Source of the DNA: an uncultured virus (IMG/VR IMGVR_UViG_3300034815_000029)
Taxonomy: Duplodnaviria > Heunggongvirae > Uroviricota > Caudoviricetes
Length of the DNA: 20,000 bases
Reading direction: 5' to 3' (one strand)
Virus record (IMG/VR): IMGVR_UViG_3300034815_000029
Shown: positions 1 to 18,740 of the stretch, piece after piece
How the letters are laid out: each line of letters opens with the position of its first letter
Numbering within the stretch: the stretch's first letter is position 1
Position numbers and translations under genes: made by a program
Notes under the pieces: generated by a model
Told to the model about the DNA's origin: nothing
What the model saw: only the letters and a program-made list of their open reading frames with translations
Database searches by the model: none

Positions 1-20
1 ATCACCCGGACGAACTGCAT
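1..20 (-). CDS. Possible 5' end of a fourth nested +1-frame ORF (MQFVRV...) inside the giant gene
   Basis: The minus strand reads TATAGT-AGAGG-cgaca-ATG CAG TTC GTC CGG GTG, in the same +1 frame as the other nested ORFs. Only 6 codons are visible. Confidence 0.3.
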
Positions 21-3000
21 TGTCGCCTCTACTATACAGCGCCGTGCCTTGGTCGGTTTCCTTGGCTACGTTGCTGCCAGAATACTCACGCAGCGCATCG
101 CCGTAACCCATCTTCACCAGCTTGGCCTTTTGCGCCTCGATGCCGGCCGCCACGGCCGCCTTCTGTTCATCCGGTACGGCGGGGCCTTTCGCCATCAGTG
201 CGCGCTGGACCTTCTTGTGTTCCTCCCGTGCGTGTTCCAGATCAGCCGACTGCGCAAACGGTTGCTTGGATTGCTCGACCATCGCTGCCGCGTCCTGCTT
301 CGACTTCTCGATCTTGGCTTTGGAATCCTCCAGCGCAGCCGGCAGGCGGCCGGCATAGTTCACCAGTCGCTGAACGAATCCGCTGGCAGAGAACAATTCA
401 GAGCCCGACCAGGTGCCGACACCACCGGTGGGGGAATCCAGAACCATGATATTAGCGTGCGGAGCGGACAGCCTGAACGATATGCCGCGGTAAACAATCG
501 TCGCCGACTCGCGCAGCCCGGAGCGAACCAGCCCTGCAACACTTTCAATCTCCTTGATGGCCTTCTCTTTGTCGGCAAACTTCGAGGTGTTGACAGTGAT
601 TGGCGAGTAGCCATCCTTGTTCAGCGGGTGCTTCTTGATCTCGTCCAGCAGCTCCTGTAGCTCTGCCACATTCTTTGGACCGTAGGTATCGGCGTACTCC
701 TGCGCTGCCTTGGCCTTGCGTGCCATCGCCACCACTTCATCGGCGTGTCCGGCCTGCAATTGCTCCAGCCGGCGTACATCGTTGCGCAGTTTGGTTTCGT
801 CCAGGATCAGCGGGTCGCCGGAAGCGGCTGCCTTCATGTCGGCTGAATTGGCGGCCTCGCCCTCGATGTCGTCGATCTCGTTGATGGTGCCGTCGAAATT
901 GCGCAGTTGCTCGATGCCGCGAGCCTTGTGCTCCAGGATCTGCCAGCGCCGGGTGTCATAGGTCTGTTCGGTGGCATAGCGGCCGATGTAAATCTCGAAG
1001 CTGTCCGGGTTGCCGGCTTTGGCGGCGCGCTCGTAGAGCTTGTTGCCGCGGCGGATAATCCGCCCCTCGCGCTGCTCCAGATCAGACGGACGCCATGGCG
1101 CATCGATATGATGCAGGCCGACCAGCCGTTCCTGTACGTTGGTGCCGGCGCCCATCTTCGGGGTGGAGCCCAGCAGGAAGCGAATCGCGCCTTTGTTCAC
1201 CGCCTTGAACAGTTTGTCCTTGGCGGCCGGTGTTGAGTAGTCATGAATGAAAGCGATTTCGCGTTCCGGTATCCCCTGCTTAATCAGCTTGGCCTTGATG
1301 TCATCGTACACGGAAAACCTGGAAGAACCGGACATCCCGGCCACATCCTCGCGGCTGAAGAACTCGAAGCCTTCGGTTTCCACCTCGTTTTCATTGTTGT
1401 ACTCGTCGATCTGCTCCTGGCTGATTTCGCCAAGCCGCTCGCGGTTTTCTATCCAGGTCTGGCGCTGGTCGGTGTTGGCCAGGATTTCATTGGCTCGGTC
1501 GCGCGCCTCCTGCTTGGTGCGCATGTCGCCGAACAGCTTGCCGCCTGATACCGCATCGTAGGCATCGAAGCGCTTGGTATCCTTCTCGCCGCGCTGAACC
1601 ACGAAGTAAGGCAGATCCTCATGCCCTTCCAGGGTGTGCAGGGTGCCGCGCTTCATTTCCAGCGCCTGATACTCGTCGCGCACATACAGCCGGCGCGCAG
1701 ATGCGCCGAAGGTGGCACGGGCTGACAGGGGAATCGACATGTCACAGAACACCAGTTGCGCGCCCTTGTCGGCGTCCCACTGGTGATAGACCTTGACCAT
1801 TTTATCCACGGCCAGGTTGATCTTGCTGCCGGCGAAGTCTGGCGCGGACGGGTCAATCAGGCGATAATCCAGTCCCAGTTTGTTGGCTTCGCCCGTCAGT
1901 GACAGCGCATTGACCTTGCCCTTGGTGGCACGGGTCAGTTCGCGCAGTCTACCGAAGCGACCGAGGATAGATTCGGGGTCCACCGTCACCACCGGCGACA
2001 AGGCGCGCTCGACGATCTTCAGGCGCGCATCTTCTTCGGTGTCGAACTGGCCAATGTCGGTCAGGTATTCAATTCCTTCGCCGTTGATCTGCGTGGCCTT
2101 GGCGTGCCACTTGCCGGTATCCTTGACCTGCTCGATCTCCGGCAGCGCATTCGAGTTCAATGACAGGTCGAACTTGATGGCGCCGCTCTCGTCCTCTTCC
2201 GCGCGCGGTATGCCCATCCGTTCCGCCACCATCGGCGAACGCTTGGCCACGACGATCTCCGGCCGGCCGCCAACCAGTTTCGGCACCGGGAAACGCTTGC
2301 CCTGCGCTTCTTCCTGCGCCTTCAAGTCGTCCAGCGTCACGGTGTCGGCGAAGGTGTTATACATGTTCATCAAGCCGGTCAGGTTGGTGAACTTGGCGAA
2401 GCGGGTAGACTGGCGATAGCCGCTGCCTGACGGCGAGACTTCGTAGACGTTTTCCACGCTGCCGAACTGCTTGGCCCAGGCGTCGAACACATGCAAGCCC
2501 TCTTTCTTCATGGTCGGGTACTGCATGTAACGCTGCATGTTATACATCTCGACCAGCGAGTTGGATACCGGCGTGCCAGTGGCCGAGATAAACGGCGTCT
2601 TGTCGCCGAAGGTGTCGAACAGCCAGCGCGTCTTGACGAACAGGTCGAAGGCTTTGGCTGATCCGGCCGGGTTGCCCATGCCGGGGTTGCGGTCCATCGT
2701 CGAATGGTAGGTAAGGTTCTTGAATTCGTGCATTTCGTCGATGAACATGGCGTCTACGCCAAGCTCGTCGAACGTCACCATCTTGTCACGCTGCCCGATG
2801 TTGGCCAGCTTCTCCTTCATCTTGGCCTCCAGGTTCTTCCTGATCTTCTCCATGTCGCCGATGATGTTCCTGTCACCGCGGCCGCGCTTCATTTCCTCGA
2901 TGGCCTCGGTGATCTCGTCAAGTTGCTCCTGCAATACTGCGCGCTCGGTGGCTTCAGGCAGGCCGATTTTCTTCAGAGAGGAATGGCCGATCACTACGGC

Positions 3001-6000
3001 GTCCCAATCCCCGGTGATGATCTTGGCGAACATGCGCTCGCGGTTGCCCTTGCCGAAGTCCTCCGGCGTTGCCGCCAGGATATTCGAGCCGGGATACAGC
3101 CGGGTGAATTCGCTGCGCCATTGCAGGGTGAGGTGATTCGGCACCGCAAACAGCGGCTTGCGCGCAATCCCCATGCGGCGCATTTCCATCGCCAGTGCAG
3201 CCATTTCAAAGGTTTTGCCAGCCCCGACCACATGGTCATAGAGCACCTGGTAGGATTGCAGCCCACGCCACACCCCGTTTTTCTGGTGCTCCAGCAGGGT
3301 GATGGCCGGGTTCATGCCGGGGAAAGTCATGTGTCCGCCGTCGAACTTGCGCTCCACGATACGGTTCATCTTGTCGTTGAAGATCGAGGCCACACGGTCG
3401 GCGCGTGCCGGTTCGCTCCATAGCCATTTCTGCCATTCGGCCTTGATCGCATTCTGCTTCTCGCGCGCAGCCTCAGTTTCCTTCTCCAGCAGGGTCGTCG
3501 TCGTTGAGCCGTCGCCGTTCTTGATGATCTTCTTGACCACGGCGCCGCGGCCCAACATGCTCAGACTGAACAGTTCCTGCGCGCTCAGGTGCGAGGTGCC
3601 GAACTTGCCGGTATTCAGCGCCGCATCCGCGCCGCCATGATAGGAAATCAGCCATTGCCCGGTTGCCTTGACGTAGGAGGCCGTCGCTGTGCCGCCAGAT
3701 ATCTGCTGGATGAACTGCTCGTAAATCTCGGCTGGGACGAAGGCCGCCCCGATAGCTGCCGAAATTTCGCTGGGTTTCTTGTCTGCGGGTATGACCGGTT
3801 CCAGCGCCTCGACGTTGCGCTTGTACTTGGGATTGTCCAGGGCGGCCGCCTTGGCCTCGACCAGCTTGGTCTTGACATCGCCGGACAGGTATTCATCGGC
3901 GGTCACGATGCCGGATTGCGGGTCGTCAAACACCACGTCGCCCAGCTCTTCGATAATCTCGTCGGCTGTCTTGTGGTAAACCTCAGTCATGTAATCACGG
4001 TCCACCTTGCCGCGGTAGTTGAGCGAGGCCAGCAGCGCATCCTTGGCCGTGGTCACGGTGATGAAGTCCTGCGGCGGGAAGGCGACGCGCTGCCTGAAGA
4101 TATCCGCCTTGGTGGCGCTGGGCTCACGCAGCTCCAGATCTTCCTTGTCGGCAACGGCCTTGCTGATGCCCTTGTCGAAATCGAATTCCAGTCCTTGCAT
4201 CAACGGCGCTTCGGTATCATCGAAGAACAGTTTGCGGTTGACCTGGCTGTTGACATGGCCGAACTGCTTGAGGAAAGTGTCGTACTGGTTGTTGAGGCGC
4301 TTGCGGTTCAGCTCGATTTCGTCCGCCGTCGCATCAACCGATCGCTCCAGGCGCATCTGCTTGCGCATCGAATCACGCAGCCCGATCATGCCAGCCATGC
4401 GGTCCGTCGCCTTGCCATTGGGCGGGGTCCATGGGGTTGCGGTCTTGTTGCCCATCACATCCTCGCCGCGCTGCATGATCTTGCCGCTGGCATCCATATA
4501 GTAGGAGCCCGGCTTGATCCCGTCGGGGATCGCCATATCGACGATGGCCTTGTCGGATTTGCGGTCGATGGTCTTGAAGATATCCTTCGGCAGCGTTTTT
4601 ACCCATGCGTCGAGCTGGTCCTTCAGCTTGCCGCTGGCTTCGACGGTGTACTCATTGGCCGAATACATCGAACCAGCAGCAGATACCGTGCCAAGGATAT
4701 TGTCAGGGTAGGCAATCAGGAACTTGTTGACCTTGTGGGTCACGGCCTCGCCGGTCTTGGGGTTGTGGTTGACCTGGTCCGCCACATCCACCCAATGCGC
4801 CGCGCCGCTAGCAGGCTCTCCGCTGTGTTTCTTCTGGAAGATCACGATGTCGGTCACAACCTCGGTGCCGGCGTTTTCCTTGAAGGCGGTATTCGGCAGG
4901 CGTGCCACCCCGATCAGGTTGGCGCGCTCGGCGATCCACTTGCGCGCGCGGTTATCCTGCGCGTCGAGGAAGTTGTGCGATACCACGACCTGCATAATTC
5001 CACCGGGACGCAGCTTGTCGATGGCCTTGGCGAGAAAGTAGTTATGGATTGAGAAACCGGAATACTGGCTGCGGTCACTGTCCACGATAGGCGAGCTGCC
5101 GAAAGGCGGATTTCCGACCACGACATCGAAGTATTCAGCCGGGATATGGAAGTCCTCAAATCCGCTATGGGAGATTTTGGCTTTCGGGTACAGCGCCGTG
5201 ACTAGCCGGCTGGTCAGAGAATCCAGTTCGACGCCGTGCAGGTTGGACGCATTGCGCAGCGCGGCCGGCATCAGGCCGAAGAAGTTGCCCACACCGACGG
5301 AGGGCTCCAGGACGCGGCCGCCAGCAAACCCCATGCGCTCAAGGCTGGAATACATCGCCTTGACCACATCCGGGCTGGTGTAGTGCGCGTCCAGGGTGGA
5401 AGCGCGAGCTGCTTTGAATTCAGCGTCGGTCAGCAGTCCTTTAAGTTCTTCGTGCTGCTTGGCCCACTGCTTGTTGGCAGGATCGAAAGCGCCCTTGAGT
5501 GCGCCCCATCCGGCATATTTGGCGATCAGCTTACGTTCTTCTGGAGTGGCGACGCGGCTTTCTGCCTCCATCGCTTTGATGATCTTGATCGCGGCAATGT
5601 TGTCCCGGTACTTCTTGGTCAGTCCGCCCTTGCCGATTTCCTCGGCATCAATTACGAAGTCGTCGGTGGGCTCAGACTCAGGCCGTACTCCTGAATGATC
5701 TCGTGGCGCGCCAGGTGATTGTTCCCCGGATTGCTCAATACTTCCCGCTCCTGTTCCTCCTGGCTTTGCAGGGCTTCCAGATACTGCCCCGCTTCCACCA
5801 GCGCCTTCACGTCCTCCGGCCAGCCCAGCGCCCAGCGGTTGGCTATCTCGACTGCCAGTTGCGGCATCCGCTTGAGTTTCGCTTGCAGATCCTGCGGGTA
5901 CTGACTCGGTTTGTATAGGGTTTGCATGGTCGTCACCATTGGTTGGTCCTGATTTGAGTGTAGCAGAATCAACGTGTTCTGCAATGTTTGCTGCATCCCA

Positions 6001-9000
6001 TCCGCGATACCAGTCTTTTGGATTCTTACCAGATGGCGTAGTGAAGTAGGACGGAAGCACGCGGGGCTTGCCGGCTTTGAAGTCAGCTTTTCCGGCTGCG
6101 TAGTGGGTGCCTTCGTTCGTGGCTGCTGGCTTTTGACCATCCTGCGCCAGTTCCTCGACCGTCTTGTACTCATCCTTGCGGTTGCGGATTTCAATGCCGC
6201 CGCCAGGGATGATACCGACTGACTCACTCACCCTGAATCCGCTGTCCGTGTAGAAGCGCACACCGCGCGCGTCCTGATAGATTGCCTTGCCATCCGTGTT
6301 GCGACCGACGAAGGTATCCTTGTCCGGTTCATTCGCTGTTTGCGAACCGCGAACCTCTGGCCGGACCACATGCCGCATCCGGATGAACCAGCCGCCGTCT
6401 TTCTTGAACGTGCCGGTAGGGTCCAGCGTGCGCGCCTGCTTCTCGGTCAAGGTCTTGGCAATCACGCCTTTAATAGTCTTGCCGGCGCCGCCTTTGGTCA
6501 CATGCTCGACTTCTGGCAGATTGGTTTCCAGCTTGTCGCCGACGATCTTCTCGATGTTCCCGAAGTTGGTTTCGGTAACATCCGTCTTGGATGGCGTTGT
6601 ATCTTTAGTGAAATCATCAACCGGATTGGCCGCGGAATTAGCGCCATGCCAACCTGCGCTCCACTCATCCGCAGATTTTATTGTTTCACTTGCGCTTTTG
6701 CCTTTGATATAGGCGTCAATGTAATCCTTGTCCATGGCGGGTGAGGATAGCTTGCCAGCCTTGAATGCGGCGGCCCCCATTTCTCTGGCGGATAGCTTGG
6801 GTTTATCCTCTGCCTTTGGCTCCGGATTGATGGTTTTCGCGTAGGCGATAGCCGCCTCTTCCGTAGGGAATATCTTGGCCTCCAGCGTGAACTCGCCAGA
6901 ATCCGTGTCCTTCTGGACCACATTGAACCGGCCATTCGTGCCGGTGACAACGTGAGACTCCATGCCGGTATCTTCATTGCGGAAGATATGGAGCGGCCCG
7001 GCAGGTTTATCTGCTTGCAGACTATCAACATCGACCGACTCGACCGAAGCAGCACTATCCATTTCACTTGAGAAGGCGGCAGCGCGTGGATCGAATTTAA
7101 CCCCCAAAAACCAGCTTTTCAGGTAAGGCTTCACCGCGTCGCCCAAATCCTCGATCATCGCCTTGGCGTAGGCCGTGAAGGTGCGTGCGCCTTTTTCTAT
7201 ATGATACCCGGCCAAAGTAATCCCGGCCTGCATGACTTCCGGGTCCAGCCCGGTGTTGACCTGTCCGAGTTTCTTCTTCAGCAATGCGCGCGCAGCGGCG
7301 GCGGCATCTTCGGTGAATATGGTATTGGTAGATGGCTTGCTAGATTGCTGGCTTGCTGGCTCATTGCGTAGATCAAACCCGCCCTGGGTGTTGAACATGT
7401 CCACTTGATCTGACGTAACGCTCGGACCGGTCGCCTTGTTGGCTTCGCGCTCGGCCTTGTCTGCGGCGGCTTTGGCTTTTCTTTCTGCTGCGGCTACCTG
7501 GCTTTCGGTTTGTCCTTCGAGGCTGAACTCTTGTGATGGGCTATCGACTCCTGCGCTTTCTCCAGGTGCTTCGCCCGGATGATCTTCTCCGCGACTTTCC
7601 GCGCCGCGGGTGTCAGCTTCGCCATGTCCGCCTTCAGTTCCTGTAGCCGTTCCTTCATCGGTGCTTTCATTGAAATCTCCAAAAATTGCCGCTTCTTCTT
7701 CCTCGATGGTCTTGAATTGCTTGCTGGTAATCTTGTTCGCCGTCCGGATGTCCATGAACGGGATGTCGTCCAGCATGTCCTCGTCGGCTGCGACCACTTC
7801 CGATACCGCGGACTGGTCCGCTTCGGTCAGGTCGTCGTAGCCATGGCGCACGCCTTCATGCTCCTGCTCCGGCTCTTCGCCGCGCTGGTGCTGTGCATAC
7901 TTGCTGCCCTGATCCTTGTCATTATAGAGCTTGTCGAGCATGTCATTCATGTCGTGCTCATCCAGGTAGCCATGCTCATGCAGGGCGCCGGCCATGTCAT
8001 CGGGCTTCTTGCCGTTCTTATTGAACAGGAACACCGGCAATCCGCTGCCGACCTGGATCTTCATGTTGCCCGTCACGCCCAGCAGGGTGCGGATATCGTT
8101 GGCTTCCACGCTGTCGGTATGGAATCCGCCCAGCTTGCCGATGGCGGTAATCAGGCTGTCGCGGGTATTATCCACGATGCGCTTGGCCTTGACCTTGGGC
8201 TTGGGCTCTTCCTTCTCGACGCCGAACACCTTGACGCCGCGGCCGATTGCGCCGGCTGCCTTCAGGGCATCGCGGATCTGCGCATTGCTCGCTCCCGGCT
8301 TGACAGTGATGTCCTCGCCAGTCTCGAAATGCTGCGCCGGATACTTTCCGATGAAGATCGCGCCGTCCTTGACGGTGATCGGCTCGGCATTGTTCGGCAT
8401 GGTGCCGATAGACAAGACCTTGGGACCGGCTGGCACTTCGGCAACCGGTGCGGCTGCTTTCGGCGCTGGCGCTTTGGGCAGGTATTGACCTCCGGGCAAA
8501 GGTGCGGCAGGCGTTACTGTGTCATCCCGCACTCCATTTCCAACAGGTCCACCCGCTCCAGCGCTTCCAGCATCCGGTCCGGCAATTCCAGGTCGTCCAG
8601 TTCCGTCAGCGACAGGAATTCCATTGCCATCCACAGGAACGACATTTCCGCCAGTTCCTCCGGCGATATCGCTGCCTGCTGGTAGGCTTCCAGCATCCAG
8701 TCCTCCGTCTCCAGGTTCAGCAGTTGCGCCATTTTGTTCCCCTTGGTAAGCGAGCCCTTGAACATCGGATAGCAGCGCGTCGTCTGCGGTTGTAACGGGC
8801 GCCGCTTGAGGCAATACGCCCGACCGTGCAGCCAGGTTCGCCGCTCGGGTAAGGATGCCGCGCTCCGGCACGATCTGGCCGGCGGGGACTTGCGGCGGGT
8901 TTGGTGACATCGAGGCGATCACACCGGCATCGATGCCGCGCTTGGCAAAATTGGTGTTCCCGACTTCCTGATCGATAGCTTCGCCTATCTGCGCTCCCGC

Positions 9001-10323
9001 GCTCCGATCTTTGGTGGATTCTGTTGCCGCACCACCAATGACGGCAGACCCGCCGCCCGCGATTGCGCCGATCAGCGCGGCCTCTCCGGCCCCTTCCATG
9101 AGCGGCCTGCCGGTCAGGTAGTTCTGAATCATCTGCTGCGGCAATTCCTGCCAGGGGCCTTCTGATAATGCGCCGACGGCCCCCTTCTTGACGGCGTTGT
9201 CGAAAACGAACTTCCCGGCGTCATCAAACATCTTCAGGTCATTGAACAGGCCGATTTTGTTGGTGACGCCCAGCACGACCATGTTCGCCATGAAGCCTTT
9301 GTCTGCTTCGGCCATGGCCTGCTCATCGGTATAGCCTTTGCGCTTTAGTTCCTTGAAAACGCCATCGGCCTCTGCTGCCGCCTCAATTGCCGACATTGTT
9401 CCGGCACCAGCCCATTTCGCCATCACCGGAGAAACGATAGATAGCGCACTGGCTCCCTTCATTACGCCGATGCCGGGAACGTAAAACGACGCCATCGATC
9501 CGACAGCGTTTACCAGCTTGTCTGTGAAATTCCCCTCTGCCGGTTGCTTCCCTTGCGCCCATGCGTCCATGCTGTCGCCGATATCGGACAGCGATTGCGC
9601 GTTGGTTTTTTTGCCTAGGTAGGACAGCGATGCGCCCGTAGAGCCGACAACACCACCGGTAAAGTCGTTCCAGTATCTTTCGACGCCACGCTGCGCCTCG
9701 AAATCCAGTTTTGAATTTTGAGCAATACCCGGCATGTCCACGGCGCTCCCCATGGCCACATCGGACCGCGCCTTGTTGTCTGCTGCTTCCGGCGTCATCC
9801 CGCCTGTCGTGATCAGGTTGCGACGGCGATCTTCAACACGGGCAGACATCCCATCGAGGGCTGGAAGCTCTGCCGCCATGGCATCCTGCTTCTGCCATGC
9901 CGCTACCTGCGGCGCGGCGACCTGGCCCACATAATCAGGACGGCCCGCGATTTCTGCGCGCTTTTCTGGTGTGGCCGCTTCAAGGGTATGGGTGATACCA
10001 AGACGGGCTTCAGGTCGAACCGGGGCGCCAGCTGGGTAGGCGTTGCCTTTCTCTGCGGGCTTGCCGTGCATTACCGAGCCGGGAAGATTGATTGTTTCTG
10101 ATTTTGCTTCTGCGGGTTGGTCAGACAGGCCGACTGCATCCTTGAGATTGTCTATCGTGCCGCTTGCCGCTAGCTTGGCTGCAGATCCTACCTTGGACAG
10201 CAGGCTCTGCTTCGGAGCGAATTCTGGATACTCGCTCTGGATCGCGGTTTCGATATCCTTGTCCGCCATGCCATCAGGAAAATCAAGGTTATCGCCATTC
10301 GGCAAGACAATGCGTTGGGCCAT
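1..10323 (-). CDS. Giant DarB-like polyvalent internal virion protein (N6-adenine MTase + SF2/SNF2 helicase), >3441 aa, 3' end outside window
   Basis: Read codon by codon, there is no stop from ATG 10323 (MAQRIVLPNGDNLDFPDGM...) to base 1. GGAG Shine-Dalgarno lies 6 nt upstream. Motifs: VLEPSVGVGNFFG, VVGNPPF, DHVVGAGKT, FIDEMHEFKN, SATGTPVSN, QLVFCD, KMGAGTNVQ, PWRPSDLEQREGRIIR. It is absent from the ORF track, presumably because the stop lies outside the window. Confidence 0.95.
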   Translation of the reverse strand, partial: MAQRIVLPNGDNLDFPDGMADKDIETAIQSEYPEFAPKQSLLSKVGSAAKLAASGTIDNLKDAVGLSDQPAEAKSETINLPGSVMHGKPAEKGNAYPAGAPVRPEARLGITHTLEAATPEKRAEIAGRPDYVGQVAAPQVAAWQKQDAMAAELPALDGMSARVEDRRRNLITTGGMTPEAADNKARSDVAMGSAVDMPGIAQNSKLDFEAQRGVERYWNDFTGGVVGSTGASLSYLGKKTNAQSLSDIGDSMDAWAQGKQPAEGNFTDKLVNAVGSMASFYVPGIGVMKGASALSIVSPVMAKWAGAGTMSAIEAAAEADGVFKELKRKGYTDEQAMAEADKGFMANMVVLGVTNKIGLFNDLKMFDDAGKFVFDNAVKKGAVGALSEGPWQELPQQMIQNYLTGRPLMEGAGEAALIGAIAGGGSAVIGGAATESTKDRSAGAQIGEAIDQEVGNTNFAKRGIDAGVIASMSPNPPQVPAGQIVPERGILTRAANLAARSGVLPQAAPVTTADDALLSDVQGLAYQGEQNGATAEPGDGGLDAGSLPAGSDIAGGTGGNVVPVDGNGIPVADGTGRPGIAGPDAGSAGAGGPVGNGVRDDTVTPAAPLPGGQYLPKAPAPKAAAPVAEVPAGPKVLSIGTMPNNAEPITVKDGAIFIGKYPAQHFETGEDITVKPGASNAQIRDALKAAGAIGRGVKVFGVEKEEPKPKVKAKRIVDNTRDSLITAIGKLGGFHTDSVEANDIRTLLGVTGNMKIQVGSGLPVFLFNKNGKKPDDMAGALHEHGYLDEHDMNDMLDKLYNDKDQGSKYAQHQRGEEPEQEHEGVRHGYDDLTEADQSAVSEVVAADEDMLDDIPFMDIRTANKITSKQFKTIEEEEAAIFGDFNESTDEGTATGTEGGHGEADTRGAESRGEDHPGEAPGESAGVDSPSQEFSLEGQTESQVAAAERKAKAAADKAEREANKATGPSVTSDQVDMFNTQGGFDLRNEPASQQSSKPSTNTIFTEDAAAAARALLKKKLGQVNTGLDPEVMQAGITLAGYHIEKGARTFTAYAKAMIEDLGDAVKPYLKSWFLGVKFDPRAAAFSSEMDSAASVESVDVDSLQADKPAGPLHIFRNEDTGMESHVVTGTNGRFNVVQKDTDSGEFTLEAKIFPTEEAAIAYAKTINPEPKAEDKPKLSAREMGAAAFKAGKLSSPAMDKDYIDAYIKGKSASETIKSADEWSAGWHGANSAANPVDDFTKDTTPSKTDVTETNFGNIEKIVGDKLETNLPEVEHVTKGGAGKTIKGVIAKTLTEKQARTLDPTGTFKKDGGWFIRMRHVVRPEVRGSQTANEPDKDTFVGRNTDGKAIYQDARGVRFYTDSGFRVSESVGIIPGGGIEIRNRKDEYKTVEELAQDGQKPAATNEGTHYAAGKADFKAGKPRVLPSYFTTPSGKNPKDWYRGWDAANIAEHVDSATLKSGPTNGDDHANPIQTESVPAGSASETQADAATGSRDSQPLGAGLAGGREGAGGSGAVSGSPAKPGGTGAGSIEQSGEQSPGAPRDHSGVRPESEPTDDFVIDAEEIGKGGLTKKYRDNIAAIKIIKAMEAESRVATPEERKLIAKYAGWGALKGAFDPANKQWAKQHEELKGLLTDAEFKAARASTLDAHYTSPDVVKAMYSSLERMGFAGGRVLEPSVGVGNFFGLMPAALRNASNLHGVELDSLTSRLVTALYPKAKISHSGFEDFHIPAEYFDVVVGNPPFGSSPIVDSDRSQYSGFSIHNYFLAKAIDKLRPGGIMQVVVSHNFLDAQDNRARKWIAERANLIGVARLPNTAFKENAGTEVVTDIVIFQKKHSGEPASGAAHWVDVADQVNHNPKTGEAVTHKVNKFLIAYPDNILGTVSAAGSMYSANEYTVEASGKLKDQLDAWVKTLPKDIFKTIDRKSDKAIVDMAIPDGIKPGSYYMDASGKIMQRGEDVMGNKTATPWTPPNGKATDRMAGMIGLRDSMRKQMRLERSVDATADEIELNRKRLNNQYDTFLKQFGHVNSQVNRKLFFDDTEAPLMQGLEFDFDKGISKAVADKEDLELREPSATKADIFRQRVAFPPQDFITVTTAKDALLASLNYRGKVDRDYMTEVYHKTADEIIEELGDVVFDDPQSGIVTADEYLSGDVKTKLVEAKAAALDNPKYKRNVEALEPVIPADKKPSEISAAIGAAFVPAEIYEQFIQQISGGTATASYVKATGQWLISYHGGADAALNTGKFGTSHLSAQELFSLSMLGRGAVVKKIIKNGDGSTTTTLLEKETEAAREKQNAIKAEWQKWLWSEPARADRVASIFNDKMNRIVERKFDGGHMTFPGMNPAITLLEHQKNGVWRGLQSYQVLYDHVVGAGKTFEMAALAMEMRRMGIARKPLFAVPNHLTLQWRSEFTRLYPGSNILAATPEDFGKGNRERMFAKIITGDWDAVVIGHSSLKKIGLPEATERAVLQEQLDEITEAIEEMKRGRGDRNIIGDMEKIRKNLEAKMKEKLANIGQRDKMVTFDELGVDAMFIDEMHEFKNLTYHSTMDRNPGMGNPAGSAKAFDLFVKTRWLFDTFGDKTPFISATGTPVSNSLVEMYNMQRYMQYPTMKKEGLHVFDAWAKQFGSVENVYEVSPSGSGYRQSTRFAKFTNLTGLMNMYNTFADTVTLDDLKAQEEAQGKRFPVPKLVGGRPEIVVAKRSPMVAERMGIPRAEEDESGAIKFDLSLNSNALPEIEQVKDTGKWHAKATQINGEGIEYLTDIGQFDTEEDARLKIVERALSPVVTVDPESILGRFGRLRELTRATKGKVNALSLTGEANKLGLDYRLIDPSAPDFAGSKINLAVDKMVKVYHQWDADKGAQLVFCDMSIPLSARATFGASARRLYVRDEYQALEMKRGTLHTLEGHEDLPYFVVQRGEKDTKRFDAYDAVSGGKLFGDMRTKQEARDRANEILANTDQRQTWIENRERLGEISQEQIDEYNNENEVETEGFEFFSREDVAGMSGSSRFSVYDDIKAKLIKQGIPEREIAFIHDYSTPAAKDKLFKAVNKGAIRFLLGSTPKMGAGTNVQERLVGLHHIDAPWRPSDLEQREGRIIRRGNKLYERAAKAGNPDSFEIYIGRYATEQTYDTRRWQILEHKARGIEQLRNFDGTINEIDDIEGEAANSADMKAAASGDPLILDETKLRNDVRRLEQLQAGHADEVVAMARKAKAAQEYADTYGPKNVAELQELLDEIKKHPLNKDGYSPITVNTSKFADKEKAIKEIESVAGLVRSGLRESATIVYRGISFRLSAPHANIMVLDSPTGGVGTWSGSELFSASGFVQRLVNYAGRLPAALEDSKAKIEKSKQDAAAMVEQSKQPFAQSADLEHAREEHKKVQRALMAKGPAVPDEQKAAVAAGIEAQKAKLVKMGYGDALREYSGSNVAKETDQGTALYSRGDNAVRPGD
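780..3330 (-). other. SF2 (SNF2-like) helicase region of the giant protein
   Basis: Walker A GAGKT (~3211-3225), motif II DEMH (2728-2739), motif III ATGTP (~2570-2583), motifs V/VI GAGTNVQ and EQREGRIIRRGN (~1040-1155), and C-terminal MKAAASGDPLILDE (~800-840). Boundaries are approximate. Confidence 0.9.
4690..5620 (-). other. N6-adenine DNA methyltransferase domain of the giant protein
   Basis: AHYTS, SAM-binding LEPSVGVGNF (~5281-5310), GVELD, catalytic NPPF (5101-5112), IHNYFLAKAIDKLRPGG and RLPNTAFKENAGTEVVTDIVIFQK. Boundaries are approximate. Confidence 0.9.
5652..5939 (-). CDS. Nested (+1 frame) 95-aa hypothetical protein inside the giant gene, just upstream of the MTase domain
   Basis: MVTTMQTLYKPSQYPQDLQAKLKRMPQLAVEIANRWALGWPEDVKALVEAGQYLEALQSQEEQEREVL... 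looks like a folded helical protein. AGGA lies 7 nt before ATG 5939 (alternative ATG at 5927). The host frame here is a Gly/Ser/Ala low-complexity linker. Confidence 0.72.
   Translation of the reverse strand: MVTTMQTLYKPSQYPQDLQAKLKRMPQLAVEIANRWALGWPEDVKALVEAGQYLEALQSQEEQEREVLSNPGNNHLARHEIIQEYGLSLSPPTTS
5957..5984 (-). promoter_or_regulatory. Putative internal sigma70 promoter for the nested 5652-5939 ORF
   Basis: TTGCAG (5984-5979), 16-nt spacer, then TACACT (5962-5957) preceded by TGc (extended -10 pattern), a few nt upstream of the nested ORF's SD/ATG. Confidence 0.4.
7494..7670 (-). CDS. Nested (+1 frame) 58-aa basic hypothetical protein inside the giant gene
   Basis: GGAG 6 nt before ATG 7670. 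MKAPMKERLQELKADMAKLTPAARKVAEKIIRAKHLEKAQ... has an amphipathic helical pattern. The host frame is a low-complexity linker (ESTDEGTATGTEGGHGEADTRGAESRGEDHPGE). Confidence 0.55.
   Translation of the reverse strand: MKAPMKERLQELKADMAKLTPAARKVAEKIIRAKHLEKAQESIAHHKSSASKDKPKAR
8514..8732 (-). CDS. Nested (+1 frame) 72-aa highly acidic hypothetical protein inside the giant gene
   Basis: AAGGGGA about 5 nt before ATG 8732. MAQLLNLETEDWMLEAYQQAAISPEELAEMSFLWMAMEF... has 18 D/E, 2 R and 0 K. The host frame is Gly-rich with atypical GGA codons. Confidence 0.65.
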   Translation of the reverse strand: MAQLLNLETEDWMLEAYQQAAISPEELAEMSFLWMAMEFLSLTELDDLELPDRMLEALERVDLLEMECGMTQ

Positions 10324-10333
10324 GCGGGACTCC

Positions 10334-10366
10334 AAAAGAAAATGGCGAGGTATCTACCCCGCCATT
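10334..10366 (-). terminator. Intrinsic terminator-like hairpin directly upstream of the giant gene's RBS
   Basis: RNA AAUGGCGGGGU-AGAU-ACCUCGCCAUU (11-bp stem including one G-U) followed by UUCUUUU and then the GGAG RBS. Confidence 0.6.
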
Positions 10367-12597: not shown

Positions 12598-13083
12598 TCA
12601 AATAATCTTGCTGTACTGCACTGCGACGGCCTTGAATCCCATGCGCTCCAGTAGCACATTGGCCTTGTTCATGGTCTTGACGCTGACGATCACCTCCTTG
12701 ACGCCAAAGGCTCTCAGTACGCGCTCGATATATTTCTGGAACCGCAACGAGGCAAACCCGCCGCGGATTTCTTTCAGAAAAAACAGCGAATCCTCGGTCG
12801 CCATCGGAAGTTGCGTGTGCATACTTGTAGCCAGGTACATCGAGCAATCCCCTACCAGCCTTCCATCCTTGCGCACCGTGAACAGGATATAGCCGCCGTT
12901 CCGCTCGTAGGCGATCAGGCTTGCGTAGTTCGGGTTGAGTGCGATCCCCTGCATGTGGCCCTCGGTTTCTTCCCAATGCGCCAGGTGCAACGGCTTCAGT
13001 TCTTCAAGTACGGTTTCCATGCGCTCCACGGCGAACACCAGGCCGGAATACTCGGTACTCGGAATCTCGTCGTATGGAATCAT
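12598..13083 (-). CDS. GNAT-fold acetyltransferase-like virion morphogenesis protein (161 aa)
   Basis: GNAT-like motifs FTVRKDGRLVG, LFFLKEIRGG and NKANVLLERMGF. It lies between nozzle and ejection genes, like T7 gp13 / P22 gp14. Confidence 0.75.
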   Translation of the reverse strand: MIPYDEIPSTEYSGLVFAVERMETVLEELKPLHLAHWEETEGHMQGIALNPNYASLIAYERNGGYILFTVRKDGRLVGDCSMYLATSMHTQLPMATEDSLFFLKEIRGGFASLRFQKYIERVLRAFGVKEVIVSVKTMNKANVLLERMGFKAVAVQYSKII

Positions 13084-13264: not shown

Positions 13265-15462
13265 CAGGCGCCTTTCAGTCCGAGCATGGATTCGGCGGCG
13301 ACCACCGCATAAACCCGGACATTCCCAGCCAGCCGGTGCGCCATCGTGTCGGACTTGTACCCGGCCGGCAACGAAAATGCCTTGCTGTCTACCACCTGCT
13401 TGGTGAACTTGAGCGCGCCCCCAATGTAAAGGCTGTACTGTAGCGAGTCGAACGTCAGCGGAGGCAGATCGGCCAGCGCGTCGCCTCCAAGCGGATAAGC
13501 GCCGATGGCAGAAGAGCCCAACGCACCGTACAGCAGCGCTGGATCGCCGAAGAATGCCAGCGTCGGAGTGGTCGAGGTCGTTGCCGCCGCGGTCAGGGTA
13601 ATCTGCGTTGCGCTGTCCACGCTCTTGATCCGCGTGCTTGCCGGTATCCCAGAGCCAGTCACGTTAAGAGATGCGTATAGGTCCGCCGTGGTGGCCAGTC
13701 CCGTTACTATGGCGGTTGAGTTTGTCACGGCTGCGCGACTGATCGATGCCGCCCCGATTCTTACCTGGTTGGCCGTATAGACCGCATCGTAAGCTGTCTG
13801 CGCAGCCAGTTGCTCGGCTTCTGTCATGGTGAAGTCGGCATCAATCTTCACCGCTCCCATGTTGACTGGCGGGAGCGTCAGGAATTCCTTGCTCATCCAG
13901 TCGTACAATCGCCTTACCCCGGTATCGCCTTCCCATTCTAGGATCTCGATTCCGACTGCCACATACAGTTTTCCGGTTTCCGGGTCGTTCCATGCCGCGG
14001 TGATGGCATCATTGGCCTTGGCCAGAATCCCGTTTCCGCCGTCAAGGATCAGCATTCCGCTGACGGAGGCGCTTGCCTCGTAGTAAGCGTAATACTTGCT
14101 GTCATGCAGGGCGGCAATGAAAGAACTCGGAACCAGCGGCAGCCACTCTGCCTGGGTGTAAAGCGGCTTTGTCAGAAGATTTGCGCCGCCCGCTCCAATA
14201 AACGCAATCCCGCTGTTGGTCGGATACATCACCCCGCCATCACCGGACACCATGCCGCGCTTGGACAGGCACGGCCAGATATTGTCGATCCGGTCCATGC
14301 TCATCGCGTCCGGGCTCGATCCGCTCAGGGTGTAGGGCGTTCCGGTCGTGCCGATCACGATAGTCGTGCCAATCGAACCAAGTGCCACAATCGGGTAATC
14401 CGTGGTTTGCCGATACCCAACCGGCCAGGCATTAGGATGCCACGGCTCGCACAGGCACATTTCATTGCCCGCGAATCCAGCCATCATGCCGTTTGGCAAG
14501 GAAATCAGCCCGAGCATGTCCGCGGGCGGCATGTGGTAGCTGGTGCAGGTCATCTGCGCGCCGTTGGCCGTGCTGCCGGCCACGGTGTCGCTGGTCGTGG
14601 CGACGGCGATATTCTCTTTCACCAGCCAGTAGACGCCATTATCTGACCAGTAGATGCGCTTGGTCATGCTGGCGATATTGTGCGGCGCCAACCGCGTCGA
14701 CGTGCCGACACCATCCGTGACGGTGGGATCAACTGCCATCGCCACGCGATAGGTGGTCGGGCTCGGCACGTCATAGACTTTCTGCTCGCCGTTGAGCGAG
14801 GCCGGCGCAAAGCCGGAATTGGTCACATACTCGTTCGCGCGCAAGCCGAAGGTGCTGGTGCAGGTGAAAGTCAGATAACCGCCCGACCATGCTACGCCAG
14901 TGACGACGTAGCTGTTCAGAGGCGCCGTGTCCATGCTGGCAATGGTCCAGGTGCCGTCAACCTTGCCGGTAATCACTGCCGAAGCCGGTGACGGCGCGCT
15001 TTCCTCGCCCCATGCGGTGACGAAGGTATATTGAAACGATCTCGATACCGCCGCCCCCGTTCCACCCGCATGGCTGGGTGACGCCGCCGTAGTGGGCTGG
15101 AATACGCCCAGCACATAGAACGCCGTCGGGTAAGGCGCGGAAGATGTTGCCAGCGCGTAATTGGTGACACGGGGCTCGCCGGCACCGGTAAAGTAGGTAC
15201 GGTACGACGTATCGCCGGCAATCGGTCCGCGGCAGGCGTTGACATCCTTGTTCCAGGCCACAAACTTGTCGTTGATGCGGAAAATCGACTTGATGATGCC
15301 GGAAATTCCTGGCGTATTGGCAACGGAATTCCCGTTAAGCGATTTCAACTCGCCGGACACCAGGTTGCAGTTGATGGCGACCTGCGCTTGGTTGTCAGCA
15401 AGCAGTCGCTTGGATAGGCGCGGTACTATACCGCCAAAACCGTGGACGCGGAAGGCTACCAT
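13264..15462 (-). CDS. Tail nozzle / packaged-DNA stabilisation protein (tail tubular protein B-like, 732 aa)
   Basis: N-terminal FGGIVPRLSKRLL..AQVAINCNL..GEL motif and beta-rich repeats (YTFVTAWGEESAPSP, LPNGMMAGF, EPWHPNAWP). Size and position before the GNAT/ejection genes fit. Confidence 0.75.
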   Translation of the reverse strand: MVAFRVHGFGGIVPRLSKRLLADNQAQVAINCNLVSGELKSLNGNSVANTPGISGIIKSIFRINDKFVAWNKDVNACRGPIAGDTSYRTYFTGAGEPRVTNYALATSSAPYPTAFYVLGVFQPTTAASPSHAGGTGAAVSRSFQYTFVTAWGEESAPSPASAVITGKVDGTWTIASMDTAPLNSYVVTGVAWSGGYLTFTCTSTFGLRANEYVTNSGFAPASLNGEQKVYDVPSPTTYRVAMAVDPTVTDGVGTSTRLAPHNIASMTKRIYWSDNGVYWLVKENIAVATTSDTVAGSTANGAQMTCTSYHMPPADMLGLISLPNGMMAGFAGNEMCLCEPWHPNAWPVGYRQTTDYPIVALGSIGTTIVIGTTGTPYTLSGSSPDAMSMDRIDNIWPCLSKRGMVSGDGGVMYPTNSGIAFIGAGGANLLTKPLYTQAEWLPLVPSSFIAALHDSKYYAYYEASASVSGMLILDGGNGILAKANDAITAAWNDPETGKLYVAVGIEILEWEGDTGVRRLYDWMSKEFLTLPPVNMGAVKIDADFTMTEAEQLAAQTAYDAVYTANQVRIGAASISRAAVTNSTAIVTGLATTADLYASLNVTGSGIPASTRIKSVDSATQITLTAAATTSTTPTLAFFGDPALLYGALGSSAIGAYPLGGDALADLPPLTFDSLQYSLYIGGALKFTKQVVDSKAFSLPAGYKSDTMAHRLAGNVRVYAVVAAESMLGLKGA

Positions 15463-15800
15463 CAGCGTTTCCCGCCTTCATACGGAACAGCCAGGCCCAG
15501 CGCCAGCATTTCCTGATTGATCGATCTCCACCCGCCATCAACCCGCTCCAGGATGTCTACCAGCCAGCGCCCGTATTTGTCCGCCTTGGCGGTTTCTACC
15601 TCTAGCCTGCTCAAGTCGTTGCCGATACGCCCGATCAGCCATTGCTTTGCCGCCTCGCCGCCGCTCGCCATTTCCGGCGTGTTAATATGTGCCATTCGGC
15701 AGATGGCCCGATAGCTCATTCTGAAACCACAATCGAAGGTCATTTCTACGCTATCCCCGTCGATTACGCGAGCAGCAATGATTTTGTATCGGTAGGTCAC
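15462..15800 (-). CDS. Thermonuclease (staphylococcal nuclease-like) family protein (112 aa)
   Basis: RVIDGDS, RMAHINTPE, DKYGRWL and SINQEMLALGLAVPYEGG are SNase-family motifs. The GTG start overlaps the upstream TAG. Confidence 0.88.
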   Translation of the reverse strand: MTYRYKIIAARVIDGDSVEMTFDCGFRMSYRAICRMAHINTPEMASGGEAAKQWLIGRIGNDLSRLEVETAKADKYGRWLVDILERVDGGWRSINQEMLALGLAVPYEGGKR

Positions 15801-17917: not shown

Positions 17918-18243
17918 ACTTGCCCCTTAACCAGATTGAAGAACAGGGCGGCACGCTCAGTCAGCACGCTCTCGTCGTTTTTCGTTTCTGCGCGCGCGGT
18001 CACGTAGTCGGCCAGCGCCGGCACAATCTCTGCATTCAGCGGGAAAGTGTCGTCCAGCGCCAGATTCTCAGTGGTTGACAGCGTGCCAAACAGCCCGAAG
18101 AACAGATCAGGGCGCTTGTTGCGCAGCAGCAGAATGCCGTCTTGGGCGAACACCAGCAGGGCCGCATCGGTGAAGCGCACCTTGTCGTCGTCGTTGATCG
18201 GGGTGCGTCCACGGTCAACGATATTTTGCATGGTGTAGCTCAT
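17914..18243 (-). CDS. Small phage adaptor-like protein (109 aa)
   Basis: IVDRGRTPINDDDKVRFTDAALL...KRPDLF and ALADYVTARA resemble the helical part of phage adaptor proteins; ATGA overlaps on both sides. Confidence 0.6.
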   Translation of the reverse strand: MSYTMQNIVDRGRTPINDDDKVRFTDAALLVFAQDGILLLRNKRPDLFFGLFGTLSTTENLALDDTFPLNAEIVPALADYVTARAETKNDESVLTERAALFFNLVKGQV

Positions 18244-18740
18244 GGCGCCCGCCCGTTCTCGAAGTCAATCAAGGTGTTCAGCCTGGTTGCGCAGGTATCG
18301 TAATATTGGCCGGCTTCGACGGCCCAAGTCGCAATGTCGGCGTCAGAGGCGGCAAGTGTTCTGGAACTTTCTGGCGTAGATTCCCCGGCGCCTCCACCTG
18401 TGGTGGTGCCGTTGGGCATGTCTCGCACCCCGTTAATGAGATCGACAGCAGCAGGGCCAAGGCAAGGCTGGCCAGTAGTGACTTTGGGAACATACTTGAT
18501 CCTTTCGATGGTCTTGATCTGGATGGTGGATTCAGCGGTAGCGAGCTGGGCAGACAGGGCATTCCCGCGTGCGACTTCCTCTTGGTGCTTCTTGGCCGCC
18601 GCGCGCTCCGCGATCATATTCTTGGCGTCGCGTCTGTCATTGGTTGAGCTCGTCCCGTACCACACCCCTGAAGCGAACAGAGACAGCGCCAGCAGCAGGG
18701 CGCCCAGCATTCGGTACGGCAGCGGAATCATGGTCAACAT
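18240..18740 (-). CDS. Rz: Inner-membrane spanin (Rz-like, 166 aa)
   Basis: N-terminal TM helix (MLGALLLALSLFASGVWYG) followed by a coiled coil; immediately after the endolysin; contains an embedded lipoprotein gene. Confidence 0.8.
   Translation of the reverse strand: MLTMIPLPYRMLGALLLALSLFASGVWYGTSSTNDRRDAKNMIAERAAAKKHQEEVARGNALSAQLATAESTIQIKTIERIKYVPKVTTGQPCLGPAAVDLINGVRDMPNGTTTGGGAGESTPESSRTLAASDADIATWAVEAGQYYDTCATRLNTLIDFENGRAP
18278..18493 (-). CDS. Rz1: Outer-membrane spanin lipoprotein (Rz1-like, 71 aa) embedded in the +1 frame of Rz
   Basis: AAGGA RBS 6 nt before ATG 18493; signal peptide MFPKSLLASLALALLLSISLTG-C (lipobox LTGC); Pro-rich mature part. Confidence 0.82.
   Translation of the reverse strand: MFPKSLLASLALALLLSISLTGCETCPTAPPQVEAPGNLRQKVPEHLPPLTPTLRLGPSKPANITIPAQPG

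Follow-up and report, generated by a model that had tools for sequence, protein, structure and literature searches.

The window, a 20,000-nucleotide stretch of DNA from an uncultured tailed virus (IMGVR_UViG_3300034815_000029), is the late module of a tailed phage, with holin, endolysin, spanin, tail fibre, and virion genes on the minus strand. The gene at 1..10335 (minus strand) encodes a giant DarB-like polyvalent virion protein. Its open reading frame starts at 10335, runs for more than 3,445 codons, and extends past the window edge (below position 1). The protein matched phrog_10089 (DarB-like antirestriction) with an E value of 0 in the PHROGs search, as well as the Pfam families N6_Mtase, Eco57I, ResIII, and Helicase_C. 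The translation and the Pfam matches place a helical lead-in and an adenine methyltransferase domain at 4675..5664 (minus strand), and from the description in PMC5512222 we infer that the lead-in is LPD36-like. The combination of an N6-adenine methylase, a SWI2/SNF2 ATPase, and a helical lead-in is that of the DarB-like methylase-SNF2 dyad. The motifs of the host protein are NPPF, GWGA (defined as GXGU), and YTSP where the TP cap is expected. This dyad of polyvalent proteins was defined in PMC5512222, the accessible main text of which does not mention a nested gene, and the accessible text of PMC9144972 reports that the JC1 homologue of the host protein is virion associated by proteomics.

A second gene lies entirely within the host gene on the same strand, in the +1 frame (5652..5939, minus strand; stop codon TAA at 5654-5652). 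It has 95 codons from the ATG at 5939 and 91 from a second ATG at 5927. All of the elements that the earlier note had read here inside the giant CDS (the nested 95-amino-acid ORF, two promoter hexamers, an extended -10 TG, an AGGA, and the ATG) are in place on the minus strand. That note had also proposed that the nested ORF ends where the host frame resumes its methylase region. The small gene does adjoin the methylase lead-in; however, the host frame does not resume at 5652, since it is open all through the overlap and the lead-in begins with DDFV at 5664, 12 nt ahead of the end of the nested stop. The host-frame reading of the overlap (5665..5939, minus strand) is rich in Gly, Ala, Ser, and Asp, is nearly devoid of aromatics (17.6% Gly, 14.3% Ala, 0.1% Trp, and 0.1% Tyr), and its residues are not conserved. 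In the host frame, the overlap is a disordered linker that must remain open and polar and is otherwise free in sequence. A contig of run X1, possibly the source of the window itself, covers 5000-6800 with no differences from it and no variants.

The nested protein (P0001) is predicted to form five helices (model pLDDT 82) and is acidic, with a net charge of -4. There were 103 homologues at 51-83% identity among 105 candidates; candidate L001 was discarded as a spurious 20-residue match. A profile of the family found 130 representatives of 50%-identity clusters. The homologues share the motifs IANRWxxGWP and HLAxHE, and they start at the second methionine (5927, MQTLY), M5 of P0001, which is almost invariant among 95 aligned homologues. 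Thus, the ATG at 5939 from which the gene was originally read is present with its AGGA, but the conserved start is the one at 5927. P0001 had no family match in Pfam or PHROGs, no helix-turn-helix or other match in the Pfam and structure searches, and no fold match for its model (best Z of 4.7 across the PDB; none under an E of 3.4 among viral structures), and the ESM Atlas returned unnamed clusters; the lack of a fold match carries no information. A strongly acidic DNA mimic is disfavoured by the median net charge of -2 in the nested family.

Selection was evaluated with 69 representatives obtained by dereplication at 95% nucleotide identity, after exclusion of 10 loci that were truncated or broken, 5 free-standing ones that lacked a start, and any with N in the ORF. 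In 22 giant-phage pairs at 80-95% identity, which are not independent of each other, dN/dS was 0.20 in the small frame versus 2.18 in the host frame. In the plasmid-type class, the values were 0.16 and 3.06, respectively. The 47 nested representatives had no stops in the host frame, as the definition of the class demands, and 2-12 in the third frame. Therefore, both frames are open and the inner one is under purifying selection, as in an embedded same-strand gene, and the homologues and dN/dS put ORF 5939-5652 far beyond chance as a real gene. The nested gene is known here from DNA alone, and a small ORF of this kind could in principle be a shadow of host-protein conservation. This explanation is rejected because selection falls on the small frame, and we regard it as practically impossible. 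For example, substitutions in the giant-phage pairs pile up at the third codon position of the small frame (0.10, 0.07, and 0.24 at positions 1, 2, and 3), and the host frame is the divergent one. The closest relative (L051) is 81% identical to the window in the small frame versus 67% in the host frame. Free-standing copies with a broken host frame exist, and the predicted fold is confident.

The claim that the nested gene has its own sigma-70 promoter stood in part. The putative promoter (5957..5984, minus strand) consists of TTGCAG at 5984-5979, a 16-nt spacer, the extended -10 TG at 5965-5964, and TACACT at 5962-5957. Both hexamers are identical in L051. However, the site agrees with the consensus at only 7 of 12 positions, and a consensus promoter scan of 5000-7000 found no site. 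For comparison across relatives, the highest-scoring site between 14 and 60 nt upstream of the nested start was ranked against windows of the same gene, with an approximate weight matrix. By this approximate matrix, the window promoter ranks in the top 6% of upstream and the top 2% of downstream host-gene windows, which on its own is suggestive only. Among 30 phage representatives, which are related to each other, 17 had top-decile scores against upstream windows and 16 against downstream windows, where about 3 would be expected, and the promoter-like sites are not conserved in sequence. Translation signals are also present. A Shine-Dalgarno-like AGGA (5947..5950, minus strand) precedes the ATG at 5939, and GGTGA (5933..5937, minus strand) is a possible ribosome-binding site for the conserved ATG at 5927; it presumably pairs with the anti-Shine-Dalgarno sequence of the 16S rRNA. 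Shine-Dalgarno-like runs of at least 4 bases were found in 19 of the 30 nested phage relatives versus a background of 15%. The enrichment of promoter and Shine-Dalgarno signals across the class supports, short of proving, independent expression of the small gene. A short inverted repeat, GCAGAA-N8-TTCTGC, extends over the promoter spacer (5963..5982, not assigned to a strand), with arms kept in L051 only, and is possibly due to chance. An operator is not claimed because the repeat is not general among relatives.

To place the family in its genomic contexts, 130 loci were examined (129 relatives plus the window, with duplicates across collections included). The small gene was nested before a methylase in 82 and free-standing in 39. 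In 6 others the locus was cut by the contig end, and in the remaining 3 a methylase was nearby but the host frame was broken. Nested copies occurred in two contexts, one deep within giant phage proteins, including an unannotated copy in Pseudomonas phage 8P, at 31545-31817 of its record inside 8P_023, and the other in shorter genes that start with a QxxLF-type motif, their frame opening just 26-150 codons ahead of the small gene. This motif resembles a sliding-clamp motif. The nested layout is thus kept across different host N-terminal architectures. All 14 more distant viral loci (34-57% identity) kept the overlap, with a methylase downstream in 13 and a contig end in 1. Nested relatives were found in 5 of seven taxonomically spread records (Burkholderia, Pseudomonas, Campylobacter, and Alteromonas plasmids and one faecal record), whereas the Agrobacterium and Rhodococcus plasmids had none within 2.5 kb upstream. 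The distance from the nested stop to the lead-in ranged from -45 to about +1300 nt and was within about 60 nt in most phage loci.

The linkage was also evaluated in reverse, with 48 viral loci chosen by the methylase domain alone (35-78% identity), 47 of which had upstream DNA. In 46 of the 47 phage loci (38 of 39 after dereplication), a +1 ORF that has a start codon and spans at least 80 codons ends -60 to +95 nt from the lead-in, compared with 0 of 47 for the +2 frame and 160 of 2187 null positions within the same genes. These results agree with the earlier proposal of a separate gene, with translation signals of its own, in tight linkage with DarB-like methylase-helicases. Of the 47 loci, only 15 carry a member of the P0001 family. 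A Pfam search covered 28 of the other 32, and 13 of these matched TnpV (E values of 5.7e-6 to 0.044, all below the Pfam cut-off). One ORF outside the P0001 family was found in 21 records of 12 cultured phages, each time beneath an annotated giant CDS; in PBC5 the counterpart had been read as the end of orf33. Phage JC1 carries an unannotated nested ORF at the equivalent spot.

The 39 loci without a methylase-helicase downstream limit the prediction that homologues co-occur with such genes. They modify the idea, toward action in trans, more than they refute it because they seem to have escaped from the nested state. Among the 79 proteins of a tree (92 columns), free-standing copies were scattered among nested ones with 10 label changes, at least 9 of which were forced by well-supported branches. 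The free-standing copies still avoid T before GA codons, a combination that would read as TGA in what was once the host frame (10 of 250, compared with 53 of 377 ahead of other G codons; P = 2e-5 for sequences that are not independent), and 13 of 22 still have no stop in that frame. This pattern suggests that the free-standing copies arose by repeated escape. Many are located at the cargo end of satellite-like elements with an integrase and a primase, or on small plasmids, and dN/dS was 0.14 in one clade of 11 free-standing copies. One satellite copy, at L044:8010-8306, has a membrane-protein gene upstream. A search with a single query of 10 genomes with a free-standing copy, which are draft assemblies, found no match to a DarB-like methylase in 9. 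The protein is therefore useful without the host gene in cis.

The likeness to TnpV that had been proposed from the sequence pattern appears to be a remote and transitive homology. P0001 itself did not match the TnpV family (PF14198; cut-off of 27 bits) at E values up to 1. The 95 aligned homologues had no match either, nor did 93 distant homologues at E values up to 0.1. Direct comparison of the P0001-family profile with TnpV gave a weak match (score of 14.2-15.4, E of 0.036-0.07) that exceeded all 25-30 shuffles. An intermediate family connects the two. Its match to the P0001 family exceeded all 30 shuffles (E of 0.0023; 3.6e-4 with a probability of 37% when three bridging sequences were included), and it matched TnpV with E values of 1.4e-5 to 2.5e-7 (probability of 80-93%). 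One ORF (L236) matches both the P0001-family profile (3e-10) and the TnpV profile (0.0012). The aligned register was identical in all of these comparisons, and both models share the order of helix, Pro, nine-residue helix, long helix, loop, and helix. TnpV is also like P0001 in size and in its pattern of helix, W/Y-x4-P, short helix, G, and long helix. P0001 is therefore probably a remote TnpV relative that falls outside PF14198 and occupies an equivalent genomic slot.

That slot is seen in true TnpV genes as well. Annotated TnpV matched 125 plasmid records, 96 of them from Listeria. Among the 60 TnpV matches listed, 51 were covered by a CDS bearing the annotation SNF2, helicase, ArdC-like, LPD25, or methyltransferase and 6 by one called 'TnpV protein', and the other 3 had no CDS over them. 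Twelve regions were examined, 7 with an annotated host CDS, 4 free-standing, and 1 before an unannotated methylase. In all 7 with an annotated host CDS, which are SNF2 genes of Firmicutes plasmids, TnpV was in the +1 frame, 78-1224 nt upstream of the methylase. Three of those seven (L222, L226, and L232), plus L235, are nested TnpV genes above the Pfam cut-off. In 101 sampled genomes, PF14198 had one sub-threshold match. A search for homologues of the L200 ORF and a scan of viral sequences with TnpV yielded no informative matches. The literature, as far as it is accessible, regards TnpV as a transposon gene that stands alone and serves excision or integration, not as the nested partner of a methylase-helicase. 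For example, TnpV of Tn4451 adjoins a serine recombinase gene, and its role in excision was postulated by homology with lambda Xis (PMC3158075, accessible text), whereas P0001 lies within a virion gene in a structural module. Stand-alone TnpV genes follow recombinase genes in L229 and L233 as well.

The best PDB match to a model of the intermediate family was PG0816 of Porphyromonas gingivalis (2APL; Z of 7.3, rmsd of 4.0 over 72 residues; the next structural match was 5.7). 2APL belongs to DUF1896 (PF08989), and its gene may lie next to methylase-helicase genes. DUF1896 is described in the accessible part of PMC6739104 as a Bacteroidetes mobile-element family found near AcrIIA9 homologues. 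A Z under 8 for a helical domain may reflect a common arrangement, there was no sequence match to DUF1896, and 2APL was absent from the listed matches of the P0001 model. The link to PG0816 is a lead only, as is a 0.77 match of the intermediate family in the ESM Atlas to a cluster with 11% TnpV.

Complex prediction was carried out with the 91-amino-acid protein and host residues 1558-2340 (the 783-residue methylase region), with 43-row alignments. The complex score was 0.55 versus 0.00 for the best of 3 controls, the runs agreed in at least 56% of contacts, and the partner pLDDT was at least 78. Of 157 solved pairs, 116 attain the pass mark, as do 2 of 215 mismatched ones; scores of 0.60 or below were given by only 18 of the 157 solved pairs, plus both false passes, and no interface was returned. 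The prediction lends weak support to a complex between the small protein and the methylase region. The suggestion that the small protein is a cognate regulator of the methylase-helicase gains from this score, which makes no distinction between an inhibitor, a chaperone, and an activator. Expression in a lysogen and superinfection exclusion, which the earlier note had also suggested, are hypothetical.

Our preferred reading, to which we give a probability of roughly 45%, is that the nested protein is a cognate inhibitor or regulator that binds the enzyme and restrains it until delivery. The stretch would be dual coding. The giant gene would be expressed late to give a DarB-like methylase-SNF2 enzyme, which would be packaged in the virion and delivered along with the DNA, and the host frame would cross the overlap as a floppy linker whose sequence is of little consequence. 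The +1 frame would have its own ribosome-binding site, and probably an internal sigma-70 promoter of its own, from which a small, helical, TnpV-like protein is made. The small protein would bind the methylase-proximal part of the host protein and keep the enzyme inactive in the producing cell, or alternatively switch it off once the element is established, and the enzyme would turn active when delivered without the small protein. Nesting would keep enzyme and brake inseparable as the methylase-helicase module moves between phages and plasmids, and in satellites or small mobile elements the free-standing copies would target, in trans, the enzyme of a helper or an invader.

Several observations bear on a cognate regulator. 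The linkage in the reverse test, selection on the small frame, the signals for independent expression, and the complex score speak for it. P1 DarB works without a nested gene and 2 of the 7 taxonomically spread records have no nested relative within 2.5 kb upstream, which speaks against it, and the selected free-standing copies in genomes without a DarB-like match also fit a function unrelated to the enzyme.

Tight linkage and the complex score fit equally well with a cognate chaperone or loading factor that keeps the giant protein soluble or routes it to the capsid or conjugation pore without inhibition, as Ulx and DdrB do for P1 DarB. The protein is small, acidic, and helical, and according to the accessible text of PMC9024508, Ulx aids DarB localisation and P1 DarB needs both Ulx and DdrB to reach the capsid. 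The accessible text of PMC9144972 annotates JC1 gp69 as one gene and reports no identified homologues of the P1 helper proteins in Bcep22-like phages, yet JC1 has its unannotated nested ORF. However, a chaperone could come from the same late mRNA, which would make a separate promoter unnecessary, and its selection in elements without the giant gene would be hard to explain. Moreover, neither Ulx nor any other protein encoded in the first 30 kb of P1 resembled the nested family; when 355 six-frame segments (P1 1-30000) were searched with three profiles, the best E value was 0.2 and fell outside ulx. We consider a chaperone rather unlikely. Selection on free-standing copies far from any DarB-like gene would instead be expected if the nested gene were an independent accessory, for DNA binding, recombination, or host interference, that hitchhikes in a linker free of constraint and has no action on the methylase-helicase. 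The recombinase genes next to TnpV in Tn4451, with its postulated excision aid (PMC3158075, in the part accessible), and next to the stand-alone copies point the same way. Near-universal retention in one phase, beside one domain, and across phyla would be unexpected for such a passenger, which would also have to be reconciled with an acidic protein that has no helix-turn-helix or other match and with a complex score above all controls. This possibility is unlikely.

It is also conceivable that the small ORF is a frameshift partner, in which ribosomes that initiate at its ATG shift to the host frame and produce a short isoform of the methylase-helicase, or that the internal promoter mainly serves a truncated enzyme. 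The proximity of the stop to the lead-in in most phage loci would suit this, and 1 of 25 longer database matches, P0225, fuses a portion of the small protein with the lead-in. The wide range of stop-to-lead-in distances would not, nor would the conserved C-terminal motif and own stop of the small ORF or the lack of a convincing full-length fusion among the 130 representatives of all lengths, and we find slippage very unlikely.

The host gene, which sits in a virion module in the window, has the lead-in, N6-methylase, and SNF2 domains of the DarB-type dyad. P1 darB begins at the methylase without a nested gene, and its helper ulx is a separate downstream gene. Rz1 embedded in Rz is likewise a complete same-strand gene within another in a shifted frame. 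The Rz and Rz1 products act together. An 'embedded class' of spanins is described in the accessible text of PMC9144972. Unlike in Rz/Rz1, the host in the window is an enzyme of more than 3,400 codons, the inner gene is under selection while the outer frame is a linker, and the nested pair is distributed over phages and conjugative elements from several phyla, with repeated escape of the inner gene.

Nesting of a small gene in DarB-like genes is apparently undescribed in the openly searchable literature, which leaves aside subscription papers, the original Tn4451 papers, and supplements. The accessible text of PMC5512222 contains neither 'overlap' nor 'TnpV', and both uses of 'nested' concern a hairpin; its supplementary gene-neighbourhood files may bear on novelty. 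Embedded genes, TnpV, and DarB-like hosts are already known, and what is apparently new is the nested TnpV-like gene in a DarB-like host. The window contributes a divergent subfamily without a Pfam match, the evidence for escape, and the promoter statistics. It also gives a clear natural example of an ancient overlap where selection acts on the inner gene, which subsequently breaks free to exist on its own.

Few cargo proteins of phages and conjugative elements are as common as the DarB-type methylase-helicases. For example, 1,237 plasmid records match the window methylase at E values up to 1e-40, and the accessible text of PMC5512222 ranks these enzymes as the third most prevalent domain of polyvalent proteins. 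The accessible parts of the papers examined held no description of how DarB-type enzymes are controlled. In a broader and decidedly improbable extension of the regulator reading, TnpV-like proteins, possibly including DUF1896, would be cross-phylum inhibitors of DarB-type methylase-SNF2 enzymes that are hard-wired in the second frame of the target gene. Prophages, phage satellites, and mobilisable elements would express them, nested or escaped, to disarm an injected enzyme so that host restriction destroys incoming phages or plasmids, a form of counter-counter-defence. If true, this would give TnpV a function, a concrete and testable role, and might bear on why mobilisable elements that carry tnpV insert into snf2 genes, as found in streptococcal ICEs in the accessible text of PMC9815147.

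Among cultured phages, the records of 8P, JC1, and 11 others do not annotate the nested gene, and knockouts, proteomics, and structure work on the giant proteins would overlook it. Elsewhere, the small gene is annotated while the giant gene is wrongly truncated.

The enclosing DarB-like methylase-SNF2 frame can be broken while the small nested gene within it persists. Among the retrieved loci (L numbers), L013/L035 has a host-frame stop at 8752 and L003 has one at 3539, each lying inside the methylase or shortly past its end, and the nested gene is intact in both cases.

Free-standing copies of the small gene in satellite-like elements are preceded by a gene for a predicted membrane protein with a signal peptide. 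This gene occupies L044:6994-8004 upstream of the small gene, and the same arrangement recurs in L043, L045, L047, L105, L108, L110, and L112. Residues 42 to 105 of the membrane protein match, at 55 to 77%, a domain located N-terminally in the giant DarB-like phage proteins of L005, L007, L008, L030, L057, and L155. The satellite-like elements appear to have picked up two segments of the giant phage gene; to propose that they serve as a decoy or in exclusion would be a guess.

Free-standing tnpV genes are also present in L229 and L233. The snf2 genes of streptococcal ICEs are reported to be insertion sites of mobilisable elements that carry free-standing tnpV (PMC9815147). The gene class targeted by those elements is the same class that holds nested TnpV on Firmicutes plasmids.

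Public records for plasmids of Acidovorax, Burkholderia, and Pseudomonas (L004, L236, and L237) annotate the small gene and place the helicase start downstream of it, even though the reading frame of the helicase continues open to an ATG well upstream. In Sinorhizobium phage PBC5 (L218, AF448724) the TnpV-like sequence (record positions 26200-26463) is annotated in frame as the C terminus of orf33. There the giant gene is split into two annotated pieces, probably because the deposited sequence carries a frameshift or because the gene is truly broken. The one hit of the structure search is probably this protein.

Short host proteins, including those of L050, L056-L068, L071, and L073-L075 and others, have short QxxLF-type motifs at the N terminus. 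The giant protein of the window has one, QVDMF, at host residue 977 (7393-7407). These motifs may resemble a sliding-clamp-binding motif.

The virion module of the window also includes, on the minus strand, an acetyltransferase-like gene (12598-13083) and a small endonuclease gene (15462-15800). Within the Rz-like gene (18240-18740), a minus-strand, 94-codon open reading frame (18278-18562) with a lipoprotein-like LTGC is probably an embedded Rz1 spanin, judging from its sequence.
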